64,000 bases of DNA from an uncultured Candidatus Micrarchaeota archaeon (GTDB lineage Archaea > Micrarchaeota > Micrarchaeia > Anstonellales > J096), in assembly GCA_938083015.1 (NCBI GenBank), contig CALKCX010000003.1:14793-78792 (forward strand), read 5' to 3'. Both the position numbers and the translations under genes were made by a program. The first letter of the stretch is position 1; each line of letters begins with the position of its first letter. The notes beneath the pieces were generated by a model, which saw nothing but the letters and a program-made list of their open reading frames with translations, ran no database searches and had not been told where the DNA came from. Shown here piece after piece: positions 4,131-64,000 of the stretch.

Positions 4131-5969
4131 ATGCTATTTGAAGAGATAAAAGATGAATTAAAAACTTTAATTGGAGATAAGTTTAAGATAAAGGATTACA
4201 TTACAGGAATATATGTGTATTTAGACGAATTTAAAGAGATCGATCAAAATAAATTGATAGAGATAATAAAGCGATATAAAAAGAGAATATTTATAAGATT
4301 CTCAAATAGATTACAGCAAGACGTTACAGATAAGATGATAAGAGAGATGTTGAAGACAATTCAAATAGATGATATTTTATTTTCAAATGTATTTGGTGAA
4401 GTTTATATTAAAGTCAAATATCTAAACATATCCGAATTGATTGAAAAATATGGAAAAAATATATTTTTATCAACAGGCTGGTATCCTATATTTGAAAGAT
4501 CTCCAAGTATAGATTCAGATTTTGCTAAGAGTATGTTTAAGAATAAATATGGAAGAGATGTTGAAAAGATGTTAAAAAGAGTAGGTACTAAGATGGCAGA
4601 ACGTATAGATTCAATATCTTATGTAACATTGACGATGTTAGGAGGATTTCAAGAAGTTGGTAGAACTAGTATGCTTTTAGAGACAAAACATTCTAAATTC
4701 TTATTAGATGCTGGAATTCATCCTGCTCCCCCAAGTCCCCAAGATGAATTACCTATGTTTGAACTATTAGGTTCTTTAAACGATCTAGACGGTATAATAG
4801 TTTCACATGCCCATACTGATCACGTAGCTGCTATTCCATATTTATATAAAATGGGCTATGATGGCCCAATATATATGACACCTCCTACTCTCGAATTGGC
4901 CGTATTATTACAAATGGATTATCTAAATCTAGCTGAAAAAGGAGACAATAGAGATTTTCTATACTCTATTAAGGATATAAAAAATATGTTAGATCATGCT
5001 ATATTACTTGATTATGGACAGACTACGGATGTATCTAAAGATGTAAAATTAACTTTTTACAATGCTGGCCATATCTTAGGCAGTGCATCGATACATTTAA
5101 ATATAGCTGATAAGTTTGTAATGATATATTCTGGTGATATAAAATACGGTCCTACGCAATTGTTTGACCCTGCTTATGATAAATACCCTATAGCTAATAC
5201 ATTAATAGTAGAATCTACATACGGTAACAAAGTATTACCATCTAGAGATCAAGCAGAAAGTATACTTATAAATAAGATTAAAGAAGTATTAGATAGAAAG
5301 GGCAAAGTATTAATACCTGCATTTGCAATAGGTAGAAGTCAAGAGATAATGGTCACATTATATAGATATGCTAATCAAGATTGGAATATTCCAATATATA
5401 TAGATGGAATGATAAAAGAGGCCTCATCTTTACATAGTCAATATTTAGAATATCTTCACGAAGATATACGTCGAATGATCTTAGATAATAGGTCGCCTTT
5501 TGAATGGGAATACTTGAAGGTCGTAAATGGTAAATCAAAAGATGAAATTGTAAAAGAACCATGTATTATTATAGCTACTGCAGGTATGATGAATGGGGGC
5601 CCTATATTAGAATATTTAAAGATGCTAGCTGATGATGAAAAATCTGCTTTAATATTTGTAGGTTATCAATCTCCTGGAACCTTGGGAAATAGAATACAAG
5701 GAGGAAGTAGGAAGGTATTGCTAAAAGATAATGGTGATTATAAAGAATATGATTTAAAACTAGAAGTAATGACAATCGAAGGATTTTCTGGGCATAGTGA
5801 TATGAATCAACTTTTAGAATGGATAAAATCTATAAAAAATCCTCCTAGAAAAGTTTATACTATGCATGGAGATGCGAATACTACTATAGAGTTTGCCAGA
5901 ACTATAAAGCAATTATTGAAGATTAATACAGATGCTCCTTTAAATATGGAGAGAAGAAGATTAAGATGA
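4131..5969 (+). CDS. aCPSF1 / FttA: KH-domain plus metallo-beta-lactamase plus beta-CASP RNase (transcription termination / RNA processing factor).
   Basis: 612 aa. N-terminal KH-like region, MBL motif VSHAHTDHVAAIPYL, downstream beta-CASP His/Asp blocks, and the C-terminal GHSD motif. Confidence 0.85.
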   Translation: MLFEEIKDELKTLIGDKFKIKDYITGIYVYLDEFKEIDQNKLIEIIKRYKKRIFIRFSNRLQQDVTDKMIREMLKTIQIDDILFSNVFGEVYIKVKYLNISELIEKYGKNIFLSTGWYPIFERSPSIDSDFAKSMFKNKYGRDVEKMLKRVGTKMAERIDSISYVTLTMLGGFQEVGRTSMLLETKHSKFLLDAGIHPAPPSPQDELPMFELLGSLNDLDGIIVSHAHTDHVAAIPYLYKMGYDGPIYMTPPTLELAVLLQMDYLNLAEKGDNRDFLYSIKDIKNMLDHAILLDYGQTTDVSKDVKLTFYNAGHILGSASIHLNIADKFVMIYSGDIKYGPTQLFDPAYDKYPIANTLIVESTYGNKVLPSRDQAESILINKIKEVLDRKGKVLIPAFAIGRSQEIMVTLYRYANQDWNIPIYIDGMIKEASSLHSQYLEYLHEDIRRMILDNRSPFEWEYLKVVNGKSKDEIVKEPCIIIATAGMMNGGPILEYLKMLADDEKSALIFVGYQSPGTLGNRIQGGSRKVLLKDNGDYKEYDLKLEVMTIEGFSGHSDMNQLLEWIKSIKNPPRKVYTMHGDANTTIEFARTIKQLLKINTDAPLNMERRRLR

Positions 5970-8982: not shown

Positions 8983-9109
8983 ATTGTATATATTGAAAAT
9001 ATTTTTAAAAATCAGAGCTCCAGTTTGTCATCATCAAATCAGCAAACCTGTGTATCATCCCTTTTTATAAATAATTAATCTTTTAAAAAATCTAACTCTA
9101 ATATATAGC

Positions 9110-30118: not shown

Positions 30119-30158
30119 GATGTTTTTGATTTTTAAACTTATCACAGAAAGTTTAGAT

Positions 30159-30779
30159 ATGATAATTAGAGAAAATAAAATATATACGAAAAATCTAGTG
30201 CCAGGAAGTAATGTATACGGGGAAAGATTGATAAAAATAGATGGTATAGAATACAGAGAATGGGATCCATATAGAAGTAAATTAGCAGCTGCAATACTTA
30301 AAGGTCTAAAAAATTTTAAATTTAAAAATAACTCGTCAGTATTGTATTTAGGAGCATCTACAGGTACGACTATTTCACATATTTCAGATATATGTTATGA
30401 AGCAGAGATATACGCTGTTGAAATATCTAAGAGAAGCATGCTTCAATTAGTCGAGCTTGCCAAGGTAAGAAAAAACATAATACCTATACTAGCAGATGCT
30501 AATCATCCTATGGACTATCAAGATATTGGCAAAATAGATATATTATATCAAGATATAGCTCAACCTAATCAAATAGAAATTTTCGATAAAAATGTTAACA
30601 TGTTTAAACCTACGTATGCATATCTATGTTTAAAAACTCAAAGCATAGATGTATCTGTCTCCCCGTCTAAGATTTTAGAGAGAGAATTACTTAAAATACC
30701 ATACAGGCCTATTGAAATTATAGATTTAAATCCATATGATAAGCACCATTACTTCTTAGTTTTTCACTTCTATCAATAG
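30159..30779 (+). CDS. flpA: Fibrillarin, the C/D box sRNP 2'-O-methyltransferase. The track ORF begins at 30120; the likely start is MIIRENK at 30159.
   Basis: VYGERLIKIDGIEYREWDPYRSKLAAAIL. The SAM-binding motif VLYLGASTGTTISHISDI. NIIPILADANHP and DILYQDIAQPNQ. These are classic fibrillarin blocks. Confidence 0.9.
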   Translation: MIIRENKIYTKNLVPGSNVYGERLIKIDGIEYREWDPYRSKLAAAILKGLKNFKFKNNSSVLYLGASTGTTISHISDICYEAEIYAVEISKRSMLQLVELAKVRKNIIPILADANHPMDYQDIGKIDILYQDIAQPNQIEIFDKNVNMFKPTYAYLCLKTQSIDVSVSPSKILERELLKIPYRPIEIIDLNPYDKHHYFLVFHFYQ

Positions 30780-31851: not shown

Positions 31852-32577
31852 TTATACTACTCTTCTATAGGTATCTGTTGAATCCTCAACACATTCTCCT
31901 GCTTCTGCAAGAATTACCAAAATTATTTTTACCATCTGAGACGGAAGTCCGGTTTTTTCAGCTATTTTATCTATATGAGTAGGTATTTTAATACTTCTCA
32001 ATACTTTATCTTTATTCTTATCAAACAATTCTCTTTTTATTACATAGAATTTCGAATCTACCGGATTGTTAAATACTATAAATTGATCAATATCTTCTCT
32101 ATTTTTAAACATCTCTATATCTTCAATTTCCAATATTCCATATTCTAATTCGTTTATCATCTTTATGTAAGACATCAACTTAGTCATTTCATATACTTCT
32201 TTTGGTAAGCTTATCTTACCATCAGAGTTTACCATAACATATTTTGAATCTATTAGATCTTTCAATATGAGCATCTCTTCTTTACTAAGACTATCCTTTA
32301 ACTTATCTATACTTCTATCTTTATAGTATATCATAGAGATTTTCCATAGTAAAGCTCTTTTATCTTTATCTATACTGTTTAGTTTTTTCATCAATCTCTT
32401 AATTTTTGGATCAGATATATCTATTTTGGATTTTTCCTCTTTAATTTCATAAGTCTCTTCAACTTCATAATCCGATTTATCTTGTTTTACTAAAAGCACC
32501 AGATTTTGATTGATTTGATAGACCTGATAACCATAGTTTCTAAGCACGTCAAACGCCTTTCTTAATTCTTCTTTCAT
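31852..32577 (-). CDS. Hypothetical protein with a C-terminal winged-helix-like segment. It sits immediately downstream of the HD-domain gene.
   Basis: 241 aa, Lys/Glu-rich. The C-terminus IDKIAEKTGLPSQMVKIILVILAEAGECVE resembles an HTH. No other motif found. Confidence 0.3.
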   Translation of the reverse strand: MKEELRKAFDVLRNYGYQVYQINQNLVLLVKQDKSDYEVEETYEIKEEKSKIDISDPKIKRLMKKLNSIDKDKRALLWKISMIYYKDRSIDKLKDSLSKEEMLILKDLIDSKYVMVNSDGKISLPKEVYEMTKLMSYIKMINELEYGILEIEDIEMFKNREDIDQFIVFNNPVDSKFYVIKRELFDKNKDKVLRSIKIPTHIDKIAEKTGLPSQMVKIILVILAEAGECVEDSTDTYRRVV

Positions 32578-32629
32578 ACTTTTATTATTAAACTAAGCTT
32601 TTTAAAAATTCTAGCTTTATATATTAGCT

Positions 32630-32688
32630 ATATGATGAACACTGGATATGCTGAGCATAAGCTATGACGAGAAATTTGAGTGCTGATT
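32630..32688 (+). ncRNA. C/D box small RNA (guide for 2'-O-methylation).
   Basis: aTGATGA (C box, 32632-32638), then a 12-nt guide ACACTGGATATG, then CTGA (D', 32651-32654). Next a 10-nt spacer, TGACGA (C', 32665-32670), a 12-nt guide GAAATTTGAGTG, and CTGA (D, 32683-32686). The spacing is the canonical archaeal 12-nt form. It lies in a 109-nt intergenic gap, antisense to both flanking genes, with an A/T-rich TATA-like element about 25 nt upstream. Confidence 0.65.
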
Positions 32689-33811
32689 ACTCAATTTGCT
32701 CTTGATCTATTATTTTTGCACCTTCTCCTACCCCCGATATAATGTATTTATGGCCCATGTTTTCTACAAGATCTAATACTTTGTCTAAGTATTTATCTGT
32801 AGTAAATATCAAAGGATTAGGACCTGCATCAAAAGAATAAGCAGCTATGTTTTCTTTAAATTTACTATTCAATTCCAGTATTGAATCTGCAATAGAATGA
32901 CTTACATCGTTCATATATACTATTTTTGGATAACTATTCAACATAATACTATGTAATCCATCTGAAGCTCTTATTACGATTTCCCATACATTATTATAAT
33001 CTCTGACTTTAATTCTATCTATTAATCTTGGTAATAACACATTTTCCTCGTATTCTACCCAATACCAATATAAATACGATGTTTCTACACTTCTCTTCAT
33101 TCCAGTTCTACTATCTATGGGCTTTTCATCTACTTTGACTAGAGGTAATACTATTTTAATATCTTTTAATTCAGATGCAGGTATAATTGATTCGGCATAG
33201 CTAGAATTTTCATCTATGTTTTTATTCATAAATTGCTCAATAGTAAAACCCCTATACCATATTACCAGACCACCTGCTTTAGGTATTGATCTACATGCAG
33301 ATCCTGAGAGTTGTCTGGCCAATATAGTTAATTTTCTTTCCCCCATTTCTCCAAGATTATCTAAATCCTGTTTAATCTCAGGTACAGTATTAGCAATAGC
33401 AACAGCTAAAGCAGAGAAACCTGATGCAGAAGAAGCAAGTCCTGCAGCAGTCGGAAAATTATTTTTAGATTCTATGTAATATGTATAATTCAATACCGAT
33501 GGATAAAAATTAGATATTTTCTCTAAATATATGAGAATGTTTTTATACTCTTTTGAATCCTCTTTAAAGGTCTTTCCATTTAGTATAAATCTTTCTATTA
33601 AAGGTTGATTAGGTTCTCGCTTATCTATTGATAGATTTGTAATCGTTATAAGACTATCTGTAGTAAGTGATATAGAAGATTTTGTTGGATGATTTCTTAA
33701 ACCAAAGATGTTATCTGGAAGTACTCCCCAGTATTTTATCAAAGCTAGATTAGAAGACGATTTAACAAATACCTTTTTCATATTCTTTTGATAGATTTTT
33801 AAATTAAACAT
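32687..33811 (-). CDS. GHMP-kinase-family mevalonate-pathway decarboxylase (diphosphomevalonate / phosphomevalonate decarboxylase family).
   Basis: The N-terminal ALIKYWG matches the MVD signature (NIAVIKYWGKRD). GHMP ATP-binding Gly/Ser-rich loop PTAAGLASSASGFSALA. The true start is probably the internal Met (MKKVFVK), because the annotated ATG overlaps the tRNA-Tyr 3' end. Confidence 0.7.
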   Translation of the reverse strand: MFNLKIYQKNMKKVFVKSSSNLALIKYWGVLPDNIFGLRNHPTKSSISLTTDSLITITNLSIDKREPNQPLIERFILNGKTFKEDSKEYKNILIYLEKISNFYPSVLNYTYYIESKNNFPTAAGLASSASGFSALAVAIANTVPEIKQDLDNLGEMGERKLTILARQLSGSACRSIPKAGGLVIWYRGFTIEQFMNKNIDENSSYAESIIPASELKDIKIVLPLVKVDEKPIDSRTGMKRSVETSYLYWYWVEYEENVLLPRLIDRIKVRDYNNVWEIVIRASDGLHSIMLNSYPKIVYMNDVSHSIADSILELNSKFKENIAAYSFDAGPNPLIFTTDKYLDKVLDLVENMGHKYIISGVGEGAKIIDQEQIE

Positions 33812-33898
33812 CCCGTCGGAGGGATTTGAACCCCCAACCTCCCGGTATCAACGAATTGCTCACTACAGCCGGGCGCTCTACCGTTGAGCTACGACGGG
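33811..33898 (-). tRNA. tRNA-Tyr (anticodon GUA) with a 16-nt intron at the canonical 37/38 position.
   Basis: Reverse complement: acceptor stem CCCGTCG/CGACGGG plus discriminator A, D-arm TAGCTCAACGGTAGAGC, anticodon stem CCCGG/CCGGG. The loop CTGTAG followed by TGAGCAATTCGTTGAT then A is a 7-nt loop plus a 16-nt insert. T-arm GGGGGTTCAAATCCCTC. Confidence 0.7.
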
Positions 33899-35061: not shown

Positions 35062-35177
<116 letters not shown>

Positions 35178-35189
35178 TTAAATATTTCC

Positions 35190-35200
35190 GATTTTTTAAT
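35190..35200 (+). terminator. T-tract (gaTTTTTTaat). Probable archaeal intrinsic terminator of the 5S rRNA.
   Basis: Oligo-T run 13-20 nt downstream of the 5S 3' end. Confidence 0.4.
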
Positions 35201-35206
35201 AATTAC

Positions 35207-36424
35207 ATGTTAGGTACTTCTGGAATAAGGGGAAAGTATGGAGAGAAGATAACACCGTCTTTAATATACAATGTTTCAAATAAATTCGCACAAGGAAAGA
35301 ATATTGTATATATAGGTAAAGATATAAGAGATAGCTCTGATGCTTTATATTATGCTGCTATATCTGGTGCTTTATCGGCCGGTAGTAGAGTTTACGGCAT
35401 AGGTACAGTTGCCACAGGTATATTAGGATTTGCAGGTACAGGTATGATGATAACAGCTTCTCATAATCCAGAATATGATAATGGTATTAAATTCTTCATA
35501 GATAATATTGAACTTACTAAAGAACAAGGAGAATTTTTAAATTTAGAAATTGATGAAAAACATAGCGGTCTATACATAGATTATCAAGAGAGATTATTTG
35601 ATAAATATATGAAAAATCTAGATGTTTTTGATTTTGATTTTACTTTAGAACCAATAGATTTAAATTCATCTGCTTATACATTTTTCAATTATTATATTTC
35701 TCAAACTAGAATAAGATTAAAATTGATAGACAATACACCTTATTTTCTTAGAAATAGTGAACCTATACAAGAGAATGTAAAAATAGATAGAGGATTTATG
35801 TTAGATGGAGATGGAGATAGGGTTGTATTAATTAGAGAGAAAAAAATAATAGACGGTGATAGGATGTTTGCAGCTTTGGCCAAGTATATGCACGAAACTA
35901 GAGGAACAGATGTATTAGTAGTTACAGTAGAATGTCCAATAGCAATAAAGAATTATTTAAGTAATTTTTACAATAAGATAATCGTAACTAAAGTCGGATC
36001 TAATTATATAGCACAGAATTTAAAAAATTATAAAAATGTAGGTTTTGGGGGAGAACCAAATGGCCATTATATCATTCCTTCGTTTAATCTTACCAGTGAC
36101 GGAATAGCTGGTATGGCATTAATTACAGAATTTCTAAAAACACATCAAAGCTTACCAGAGATAAATTATAGAATAATACGAAAGAAATTCAATGTTAATA
36201 ATAAAAACAAAGTAATAGAAGGATTAAAAGAGAGTATTTCGAATTATGAAGATATTGACGGTATACTTATAGAAGATGAAAACTCAAAAGTATTGATAAG
36301 GGCAAGTGGGACAGAATCTTTGATAAGATTGACCATAGAAGGCCCAGAAGGTAAGATAAATGAATTAATTCAAAAATATGAGTCTTTAGTATTAGAAAAT
36401 ATTAAAAAACATGACAATCTATAA
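35207..36424 (+). CDS. Phosphoglucomutase/phosphomannomutase-family phosphohexose mutase (GlmM/PMM-like). The track ORF starts at 35150 inside the 5S rRNA; the likely start is MLGTSGIRG at 35207.
   Basis: The N-terminal GTSGIRG motif and the active-site Ser loop ITASHNPEYDNGIKF. The Mg-binding block DGDGDRV is also present. Confidence 0.8.
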   Translation: MLGTSGIRGKYGEKITPSLIYNVSNKFAQGKNIVYIGKDIRDSSDALYYAAISGALSAGSRVYGIGTVATGILGFAGTGMMITASHNPEYDNGIKFFIDNIELTKEQGEFLNLEIDEKHSGLYIDYQERLFDKYMKNLDVFDFDFTLEPIDLNSSAYTFFNYYISQTRIRLKLIDNTPYFLRNSEPIQENVKIDRGFMLDGDGDRVVLIREKKIIDGDRMFAALAKYMHETRGTDVLVVTVECPIAIKNYLSNFYNKIIVTKVGSNYIAQNLKNYKNVGFGGEPNGHYIIPSFNLTSDGIAGMALITEFLKTHQSLPEINYRIIRKKFNVNNKNKVIEGLKESISNYEDIDGILIEDENSKVLIRASGTESLIRLTIEGPEGKINELIQKYESLVLENIKKHDNL

Positions 36425-43033: not shown

Positions 43034-43378
43034 CTATATCTTAGCTTCTCCTTTTTCTAATACAGCTACTGCGGATACGAGAAATGGTTTACCAATTGCT
43101 TGTCCCATATCTAAAGAAGTACCTATGTATATCAATCTTATTCCTTTCTGTTGACAAATAGAGGATATTTCAGATAACACATCTTCTCTAGAATTCTTAG
43201 CTAAAAACACAGCATGTACTTGCGATTTATTTAATACTCTTTTTACCTCTCTATAACCATAAACTATCTTTCCAGTCTCTGCTATTAATTTTAAATTATC
43301 TAAATTTACATCAGTTATTATCTTTTTAGATCTTTTTCTTATCAACATTTTACTACTTTTTTCATCCATATTATACAC
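43034..43378 (-). CDS. rpl30e: Ribosomal protein L30e.
   Basis: 114 aa. L30e/L7Ae fold blocks GKIVYGYREVKRVLNKSQVHAVFLAKN and LVSAVAVL. Conserved position after rpoA''. Confidence 0.85.
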   Translation of the reverse strand: MYNMDEKSSKMLIRKRSKKIITDVNLDNLKLIAETGKIVYGYREVKRVLNKSQVHAVFLAKNSREDVLSEISSICQQKGIRLIYIGTSLDMGQAIGKPFLVSAVAVLEKGEAKI

Positions 43379-62880: not shown

Positions 62881-64000
62881 ATGCAAAACCACGAATATGA
62901 TGTAGTAATAGTTGGTGCTGGTCCTGGAGGATCAGGTACTGCGTTACATCTTAAAGATTCAGGATTAAAGATTGCTTTGCTAGATAAACATAAATTTCCT
63001 AGAGATAAAACTTGTGGAGATGGAATAAGTGGCAAATCGTCTACGATATTGAAAGAACTTGGACTGTTTGATAAGATTTTTGAATTGCCCCATGGTCCTG
63101 GCTATGGAGTCTGGATGAGTGGTCCAAATGGAGTAGATTTAATAGTAGATTCTAGACAAGAAAATCCAAATGCAAAACCTCATGGAGCTGTAATAAGAAG
63201 ATATGATTTTGATAATTTTCTGTTTAATAATGCGAAGCAAATGCCAAATGTAGATGCTTTTGAACAATATACTGTATTTGATCTAATAAAAGAAGAAAAT
63301 AATTATGTTGGTGTATTGGCAAAAGATAAAGATGGGAATACTCATGAATTTAGAGCTAAGATCATAATCGGGGCAGATGGGGCAGGTTCAGTAGTTGCCA
63401 GTAAACTAGGAGTAGCTATAAGAGATCCAGATCATTATGTATCGGCAGTAAGAGCTTATTACGATGGAGTAGAAGGAATGAGAGAAGTAATTGAAATACA
63501 TTTCGTTGAACAAGCGTTACCTGGGTACTTTTGGATATTCCCATTAGAAGGCAAAAAGGCCAATGTAGGTATAGGTATGTTAGATAGAGATATGAGAAAA
63601 AATAAGGTAAATCTGGCACAACTTATGGAAAATCTTATAATGCAACATCCTAAATTCAAAGATAGGTTTGCTAATGCGAAAAGATTGACCAATATCGTTG
63701 GTTGGACTTTACCTTTAGGATCTAAGAGAAGAAAACCATATTTTAACCATGTATTATTAGTAGGCGATGCTGCTGCTTTAATAGATCCATTAACTGGAGA
63801 GGGAATAGGAAATGCTTTGTTATCATCTAAACTTGCAGCAATTACTATAAAAGAGGCATTTCAAAAGAATGATTTCTCAGAAAATACGTTGAAAATGTAC
63901 GATCAATTGCTAAAGAAGCATCTTGATCCTGAACTTCAAACAATGTATAGAATACAAAGACTAGGGTCTGTAAAATGGTTATTAAATCATTTCTTCAATA
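62881..64000 (+). CDS. FAD-dependent geranylgeranyl reductase (digeranylgeranylglycerophospholipid reductase family). Partial: it runs off the window end.
   Basis: FAD fingerprint YDVVIVGAGPGGSGTA. KTCGDGISG (conserved redox Cys). The GDAA block (LVGDAAALIDPLTGEGIGNA). The frame is open to position 64000. Confidence 0.8.
   Translation, partial: MQNHEYDVVIVGAGPGGSGTALHLKDSGLKIALLDKHKFPRDKTCGDGISGKSSTILKELGLFDKIFELPHGPGYGVWMSGPNGVDLIVDSRQENPNAKPHGAVIRRYDFDNFLFNNAKQMPNVDAFEQYTVFDLIKEENNYVGVLAKDKDGNTHEFRAKIIIGADGAGSVVASKLGVAIRDPDHYVSAVRAYYDGVEGMREVIEIHFVEQALPGYFWIFPLEGKKANVGIGMLDRDMRKNKVNLAQLMENLIMQHPKFKDRFANAKRLTNIVGWTLPLGSKRRKPYFNHVLLVGDAAALIDPLTGEGIGNALLSSKLAAITIKEAFQKNDFSENTLKMYDQLLKKHLDPELQTMYRIQRLGSVKWLLNHFFN

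Follow-up and report, generated by a model that had tools for sequence, protein, structure and literature searches.

A candidate box C/D guide RNA gene and its paralogue in an Anstonellales archaeon, with predicted wobble-methylation targets in tRNA

A gap of 109 nucleotides (nt) separates two minus-strand open reading frames (ORFs), 31852-32577 and 32687-33811, in a 64,000-nt stretch of DNA from an uncultured Candidatus Micrarchaeota archaeon (assembly GCA_938083015.1, contig CALKCX010000003.1, positions 14,793 to 78,792). We refer to the whole of this stretch as the window. On the plus strand of the gap an initial annotation, made from the letters alone, placed a canonical box C/D small RNA (sRNA), antisense to both neighbours. 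Is this element a functional guide RNA gene, and what might it guide? The coordinates and strands of the two ORFs confirm the gap and the antisense arrangement, and the boxes and spacings, when read base by base, are as exact as had been claimed. The assignment to the C/D class is further backed by motif statistics, by six syntenic relatives, by a TATA-like element and by nearby genes for the proteins of the sRNA-protein particle (sRNP). From the sequence evidence set out below, we put the probability that 32632-32686 (+) is a functional box C/D guide RNA gene at about 0.9.

Our comparison rests on seven copies of the element: the one in the window and those on six syntenic contigs (L002, L003, L004, L005, L006 and L157), which were reached through relatives of the protein encoded at 32687-33811, a diphosphomevalonate-decarboxylase-like (MVD) protein. 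L157 belongs to GCA_038736695.1 and L004 to the SRR23854657 genome. The parts of the sRNA are as follows.

32632-32638 (+), box C, AUGAUGA (consensus RUGAUGA); UGAUGA is fixed in 7/7 copies and the leading R is A or G.
32639-32650 (+), D' guide, ACACUGGAUAUG, 12 nt; nt 1-11 are fixed in 7/7 copies and G or U precedes D'.
32651-32654 (+), box D', CUGA; the same in every copy.
32655-32664 (+), D'-C' spacer, GCAUAAGCUA, 10 nt; a mini-stem of 2 base pairs (bp), GC/GC.
32665-32670 (+), box C', UGACGA, a variant of UGAUGA; UGAAGA or UGAUGA in relatives.
32671-32682 (+), D guide, GAAAUUUGAGUG, 12 nt; nt 1-11 are fixed in 6/7 copies and G or A precedes D.
32683-32686 (+), box D, CUGA; the same in every copy.

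Every one of the seven copies, like a paralogue described below, has guides of exactly 12 nt from C to D' and from C' to D. Both GA dinucleotides of box C' are as invariant as the other boxes, and variation is confined to its fourth position (U, C or A). The one deviant D guide is that of L004 (AACUAUUGAGUG), which departs from the other six at its five 5' positions. Outside the boxes and guides there is little such constancy. The D'-C' spacers of the relatives are 4, 5, 5, 10, 11 and 18 nt long and unrelated in sequence, and the flanks have diverged. Long spacers (window, L002, L004) retain closing GC..GC or GCC..GGC pairs; copies with a short spacer would form a K-loop. Fixed boxes and guides together with a free spacer and free flanks are, to judge from these alignments, the signature of a functional C/D sRNA.

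Could the element nevertheless be no functional RNA at all, but a chance array of box-like motifs, or a hairpin (terminator or antisense) where the MVD gene ends? The fold of the sRNA is no more stable than that of shuffled sequences (z=0.33), which would suit this view; a stable fold is, however, normally missing from C/D guide RNAs. Boxes containing UGA may arise around stop codons (PMC7994747), and the D guide of the window can pair with the 9 nt that follow downstream. This hairpin pairing is seen in the window and in no relative, and the terminator or antisense hairpin was rejected. We also counted how often the full motif would occur by chance, on both strands, in 2000 first-order Markov randomisations of the window, using a loose definition (guides of 10-14 nt, one variant position in C'). 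It occurs once in the real 64 kb and was found in 1 of the 2000 randomisations, or 0.0005 expected per window; a still looser motif gives 0.007. No plus-strand ORF of at least 50 amino acids (aa) runs over the sRNA. Together with the box-and-guide pattern of the seven copies and a second sRNA of the same architecture elsewhere in the window, these numbers make an absence of function extremely improbable, and in our judgement of the sequences the comparative data have already refuted it.

The relatives are informative in another respect. Their MVD proteins are 74% (L002) or 48-50% (L003, L004, L005/L006, L157) identical to that of the window. The gene order MscS, tRNA, MVD, sRNA, 241-aa gene, HD gene, fibrillarin is kept in all six, and the sRNA is always present and always on the strand opposite to MVD. 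In the window the MVD stop codon, TAA at 32687-32689 (-), directly abuts box D. The initial annotation had remarked on this contact; it is real, and it is confined to the window. In three of the relatives (L003 2450-2475, L005 11115-11140, L006 6128-6153) the MVD frame runs 26 nt antisense into the sRNA, across box D, the D guide and box C', and its stop falls inside the D'-C' spacer, so that eight MVD codons and a guide RNA occupy opposite strands of the same DNA. In L157 the sRNA lies 108 nt away from the MVD stop. Since the sequence is conserved both where it is non-coding (window, L002, L004, L157) and where it is antisense to the last eight MVD codons (L003, L005, L006), it is the RNA itself that is under constraint. 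More distant Micrarchaeota, with MVD proteins 30-44% identical and a different synteny, have no such element after MVD. On the sRNA strand of L157, between box D and the MVD stop, there is also a small hydrophobic ORF of about 35 codons (5105-5210 (-), ATGACTATGGGAAGATTAATT...TAA), which is absent from the other lineages.

Is the sRNA alone of its kind? The initial annotation expected more such RNAs hidden in gene termini. We searched with a sequence model derived from the reported sRNA's six homologues and with a general model of both sRNA families. The first gave a match of 17.2 bits at window positions 9058-9011 (-), around which a complete C/D sRNA could then be read:

9012-9061 (-), paralogous C/D sRNA, GGGAUGA / UACACAGGUUUG / CUGA / UUUGA / UGAUGA / CAAACUGGAGCU / CUGA.

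With filters off, the general model scores this paralogue at 53 bits and the reported sRNA at 51 bits. Because the next match in the window reaches just 7.7 bits, there are exactly two recognisable C/D sRNAs in the 64 kb. The expectation of further sRNAs was therefore right to the extent of one; this one is intergenic with a TATA-like run of its own, not hidden in a gene terminus, and the general model finds no others. Our motif patterns had passed over the paralogue, whose C box is GGGAUGA, and a covariance model caught it. It sits in the gap upstream of the ValRS gene with the TATA-like run about 25 nt upstream, and it is kept next to ValRS in L160/L161, L163 and L164 (L160 is GCA_026414465.1; L164, like L004, is from the SRR23854657 genome).

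We can now ask what the guides would recognise. The initial annotation derived the target sequences correctly, as well as the nucleotides that face guide position five upstream of the D or D' box (N+5). It is easiest to begin with the paralogue. Its D guide has as predicted target AGCU[C]CAGUUUG, which reads as the anticodon loop of tRNA-Trp(CCA) with N+5 on C34. The core of the guide, CUGGAGC, never varies and is complementary to G31-C32-U33-C34-C35-A36-G37, while its 5' part is CAAA, CAGA or AAAU among copies, a variation that matches what is expected for nt 38-41. At the implied position 39 the window has U and L160 has C, both able to pair with G31, and the L163 copy implies the loop CUCCAGA. 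The whole tRNA-Trp arm implied by the D guide is AGCUCCAGUUUG, and UGCUCCAGUCUG for GCA_026414465.1.

The reported sRNA carries a D guide that is predicted to recognise (C)ACU[C]AAAUUUC (CACUCAAAUUUC), with the bracketed C at N+5. This target is readable as A31 C32 U33 C34 A35 A36 A37 U38 U39 U40 C41 of tRNA-Leu(CAA). Here too N+5 falls on C34; A31 and U39 can pair, U38-U39-U40 is the same as in the Trp arm, and the layout matches that of the paralogue. Methylation of nt 34 guided by C/D RNAs has been reported or predicted for tRNA-Leu(CAA) and tRNA-Trp in Pyrococcus and Pyrobaculum (PMC7994747, PMC7668247, PMC6009581). Because of this precedent and of the paralogue's layout on C34 of tRNA-Trp, we assign the D guide to C34 of tRNA-Leu(CAA): by this analogy it probably directs 2'-O-methylation of that cytidine (Cm34). 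The reported sRNA appears to be a duplicate of the Trp guide that was retargeted to the CAA anticodon.

Several observations weigh against the reading developed so far. As to the gene, the terminal stem of the window sRNA has at most 2 bp (A32630-U32688, U32629-A32689), as weak as first described, and it is not kept in relatives. Archaeal sRNAs often have a weak terminal stem or none. As to the targets, neither guide matches the 5S rRNA or the three tRNAs that the window encodes, and these tRNAs have G+C-rich anticodon stems, unlike the A/U-rich arms that are predicted. Scans of genomes, of metagenomes and of viral contigs by pattern recovered no tRNA-Leu(CAA), tRNA-Trp, 16S or 23S of this lineage. 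Among these scans, that of GTDB genomes with the MVD protein gave nothing close; a profile scan gave mostly bacteria, plus distant Micrarchaeota without the sRNA; a tRNA-Leu(CAA) pattern with T-loop found, in metagenomes, only eukaryote-like or bacterial tRNAs; and the viral-contig patterns gave one random match. In favour of the predicted arm, metagenomes do hold tRNA-Leu(CAA) genes with an ACUCAA(A/G)UUUU arm, though these are eukaryote-like. The deviant D guide of L004 (AACUAUUGAGUG) would need U37 and an A31-G39 clash in tRNA-Leu, and so misfits beyond nt 36; a variable ribosomal RNA (rRNA) site, or partial decay of the guide in that lineage, fits better there. The D' guide, with the predicted target (C)AUA[U]CCAGUGU (AUAUCCAGUGU) and the bracketed U at N+5, has no convincing target in the window's stable RNAs or in the rRNA of E. 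coli and Halomicrobium. It does contain the complement of U33-CCA-G37 and was tried on tRNA-Trp, where N+5 would fall on U33 and three mismatches appear against the arm defined by the paralogue (AGCUCCAGUUUG); this candidate was rejected.

Would rRNA suit the two guides better? The sRNA could be genuine and both guides could address lineage-specific sites in 16S or 23S rRNA, not tRNA. Most archaeal guides do target rRNA (PMC7994747), and the deviant 5' half of the L004 D guide beside a conserved UUGAGUG is what a conserved stretch of rRNA followed by a variable helix would produce. Moreover, the 23S rRNA of Halomicrobium contains ACUCAAAU at L088 5205, in a region that differs between E. coli and the haloarchaeon, and the D' guide of the paralogue (ACACAGGUUU) pairs 9.5/10 with AAGCCUGUGU at L088 5024-5033 (Halomicrobium mukohataei 23S, plasmid pHmuk01). 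The latter site is the 3' strand of a domain II hairpin; with a chance expectation of about 0.2 by estimate, it is a lead only, for the D' target. Matches of 8 and 10 nt such as these two are within chance (about 0.1-0.2 per operon by our own estimate). In the rRNA operons of E. coli and Halomicrobium no site reaches at least 10/11 for either guide, and none exceeds 9-10/12 for D'; the targets must therefore lie outside the universal rRNA core. A likeness of the D' target to helix 89 of E. coli 23S (CAUAUCGACGG) was considered and dropped: the pattern GATAACAGGCT...ATATCCAGTGT gave 0 matches in the metagenome scan, and the best sites in E. coli and Halomicrobium were 9-10/12. Above all, it is very unlikely that two independent D guides aimed at rRNA would both place N+5 on C34 of Y-U-C-N-A-R loops (CAA, CCA). 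We therefore consider rRNA as the object of both guides unlikely. Anticodon loops of tRNA are the more likely targets, at least for the D guide.

The D' guide leads to a different question. It resembles, shifted by one nucleotide, the D' guide of the paralogue, for which the predicted target is AAACCU(G/A)UGU. Readings of the D' targets on T-arms and acceptor stems were tried on paper and rejected, as they conflict with the conservation of A58 or G1 and with the register. One can imagine that the D' guide, or even both guides, are orphans, and that the RNA serves as a chaperone or acts on some non-canonical target such as a messenger, perhaps regulating the 3' end of MVD as a cis-antisense RNA. 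Orphan guides are common, and sRNAs directed to tRNA usually have one guide without a target (PMC7994747); no D' target was found in the RNAs searched. The sRNA is also perfectly antisense to the 3' untranslated region or the 3' coding end of MVD, with overlap in three relatives. This relationship to MVD is not conserved, however, being 0 nt in one case, a gap of 108 nt in another and an overlap of 26 nt in others, and only in the window can the D guide form a hairpin with downstream DNA. Because its first 11 nt are invariant in seven lineages, the D' guide is under selection for specific pairing, which is hard to reconcile with an orphan. We hold orphan guides to be rather improbable.

Returning to methylation of tRNA-Leu(CAA) as the preferred role, what would the sRNA do in the cell? 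Two features matter here besides the RNA, and one element would allow its synthesis:

32599-32609 (strand not applicable), TATA-like element, TTTTTAAAAAT, nearly palindromic, centred about 28 nt upstream of box C.
30120-30779 (+), fibrillarin, the methyltransferase of the C/D sRNP (PF01269, E=2e-71), syntenic with the sRNA in 6/6 relatives.
43034-43378 (-), L7Ae, the K-turn-binding core protein of the sRNP (PF01248, E=1.5e-16).

The distance of 2.5 kb to fibrillarin that had been given holds when measured from the start of that gene, and is 1.85 kb from its end. An sRNA of about 55 nt would be transcribed from its own TATA element and, once joined by L7Ae, fibrillarin and a short Nop5, would form an sRNP. 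In the target RNAs this particle would 2'-O-methylate the nucleotide that faces guide position five, counted upstream from D or from D'. The D guide would pair with the anticodon arm of tRNA-Leu(CAA), nt 31-41, and yield Cm34; tRNA-Trp(CCA) would be modified in the same way by the paralogue at 9061-9012 (-). For the D' guide the partner may be an RNA with AUA[U]CCAGUGU, whether rRNA, at a lineage-specific site, or some other stable RNA.

The TATA-like sequence would also serve the 241-aa gene, a divergent gene on the minus strand whose ATG (32577) follows about 26 nt downstream. In L002, L003, L004, L005 and L006, TTT(T)AAA(A/T)AT is kept at the same distance, within intergenic DNA that has otherwise diverged. 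This fits a putative shared, bidirectional promoter that would give a leaderless mRNA one way and the sRNA the other way.

The short Nop5 calls for some explanation. Archaeal nop5 and fibrillarin genes are usually paired. None of the window ORFs scanned encodes Nop5. GCA_026414465.1, which has both sRNAs, encodes a Nop-domain protein of 228 aa (L160 19783-20469 (+)), in a gene that is not next to fibrillarin; by synteny, the copy belonging to the window would lie just past base 64000. Residues 81-225 of the protein align with residues 233-376, the Nop domain, of Sulfolobus Nop5, and the N-terminal part amounts to about 80 aa, so that, as far as the sequence tells, there is no room for a coiled coil. 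Two other proteins were considered for this role and set aside. An ORF of 161 aa beside fibrillarin, taken as a split N-terminal domain of Nop5, gave a beta-rich single-sequence model of low confidence (pLDDT 57) and heads a T2SSE/T2SSF block. The 241-aa neighbour, taken as a divergent Nop5, is ruled out by its tandem winged-helix fold and its restriction to the clade.

One may go a step further. The two sRNAs could make up all, or almost all, of the C/D repertoire in a reduced DPANN clade: a minimal kit for Cm34 on tRNA-Leu(CAA) and tRNA-Trp that works with the 228-aa Nop5 lacking a coiled coil, each RNA having an equally conserved D' guide for a second, lineage-specific site. We offer this as a tentative proposal, with the odds rather against it as a whole. 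If both guides of one sRNA do act on different RNAs with such a Nop5, the system would be a test case for dual-guide sRNPs without a Nop5 dimer bridge. The sRNA may also mark a minimal tRNA-directed C/D system with a Nop5 of this kind.

How does the sRNA compare with known ones? Its class, architecture and likely function are established biology. Like the wobble-methylation guides of Pyrococcus and Pyrobaculum it stands alone, measures about 55 nt, has the four boxes C, D', C' and D, and carries guides of 12 nt, one of which is complementary (here by prediction) to an anticodon loop with N+5 on the wobble C; unlike theirs, its host is a mesophile-like DPANN archaeon of 30% G+C. Whereas sRNAs directed to tRNA are usually described with one idle guide, here conservation is equal for the D' and the D guide. 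Across Archaea, C/D RNAs guide the formation of wobble Cm34 in tRNA-Trp (PMC7994747, PMC6009581). Functional analogues of the paralogue are to be seen in sR26 of Pyrobaculum (tRNA-Trp C34) and in the C/D guide within the tRNA-Trp intron of Haloferax and Pyrococcus, with the difference that the Trp guide here is a free-standing gene by ValRS and not an intron.

Some ten archaeal C/D families of Rfam can be aligned from one end to the other with 32628-32688 (+), at permissive thresholds only; at gathering thresholds no C/D family covers the locus. The top match is sR3 (RF01133) with 24.1 bits (E=4e-4; gathering score 41), and sR3 also scores 25.6 bits, under threshold, on the paralogue. With sR3, sR33, snoPyro_CD, sR5, sR19 and sR2, boxes and spacing align from end to end. 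The likeness to sR3 and the other families is limited to the generic boxes, the guides being unrelated, and with scores below threshold there is no family relationship at the level of sequence. Judged in this way, the reported sRNA is outside every curated Rfam C/D family, and would be a new family of a well-known kind. In the literature searched, neither Micrarchaeota nor Anstonellales have a described C/D sRNA. Annotation of archaeal genomes tends to miss C/D box sRNAs. The sRNA and its paralogue add two clean examples validated by comparative genomics; their sequences indicate that a DPANN lineage of 30% G+C keeps RNA-guided ribose methylation, and suggest that a reduced genome retains wobble-base methylation of tRNA, a function conserved from Pyrococcus to Pyrobaculum. 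They should be of use for annotating DPANN genomes and for studies of minimal sRNPs, and will not surprise specialists.

The two protein genes that frame the sRNA can be described as follows.

32687-33811 (-), diphosphomevalonate-decarboxylase-like (MVD) gene, convergent with the sRNA; Pfam MVD-like_N and MDD_C.
31852-32577 (-), 241-aa gene, divergent from the sRNA; clade-restricted, with a tandem winged-helix fold (AlphaFold).

A database copy of the MVD protein (P0001) is 100% identical and starts 10 codons later, giving 364 aa. The 241-aa protein has no sequence match in Pfam, NCBIfam or PDB, and its homologues number 5 among 5.8 billion proteins, all within the clade. Its AlphaFold model (pLDDT 82) finds its best PDB matches in the RNA-binding WH2-WH4 domains of SelB, with a low TM-score (0.27-0.29). 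The window as a whole is about 30% G+C and encodes, as archaeal markers besides fibrillarin and L7Ae, ThrRS with an archaeal editing domain, eRF1 and a 5S rRNA. The closest named homologues of its MVD and ValRS proteins are from metagenome-assembled genomes labelled 'Candidatus Anstonellales' or 'Candidatus Micrarchaeota', which places the host among the DPANN archaea.

Next to MVD lies a tRNA gene of 88 nt (33811-33898 (-)), which ARAGORN calls Thr(UGU) in the window and '???' in L157. The same tRNA is present in relatives at L002 1221-1307, L003 1214-1301, L004 52-138, L005 9881-9968 and L157 3820-3907. From its sequence it reads better as tRNA-Tyr(GUA), with C1-G72 and the loop CUGUAG|...|A; the proposed tRNA-Tyr would then have an intron of 15-16 nt at 37/38, variable in sequence among relatives. 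A stand-alone 5S rRNA gene is found at 35064-35177 (+), between the MscS and phosphoglucomutase (PGM) genes, with no 16S or 23S within the window. The PGM ORF (35150-36424 (+)) has a mechanically assigned start that overlaps the 3' end of 5S by 28 nt, and because of this overlap the true start of PGM is probably further downstream than the ORF call.

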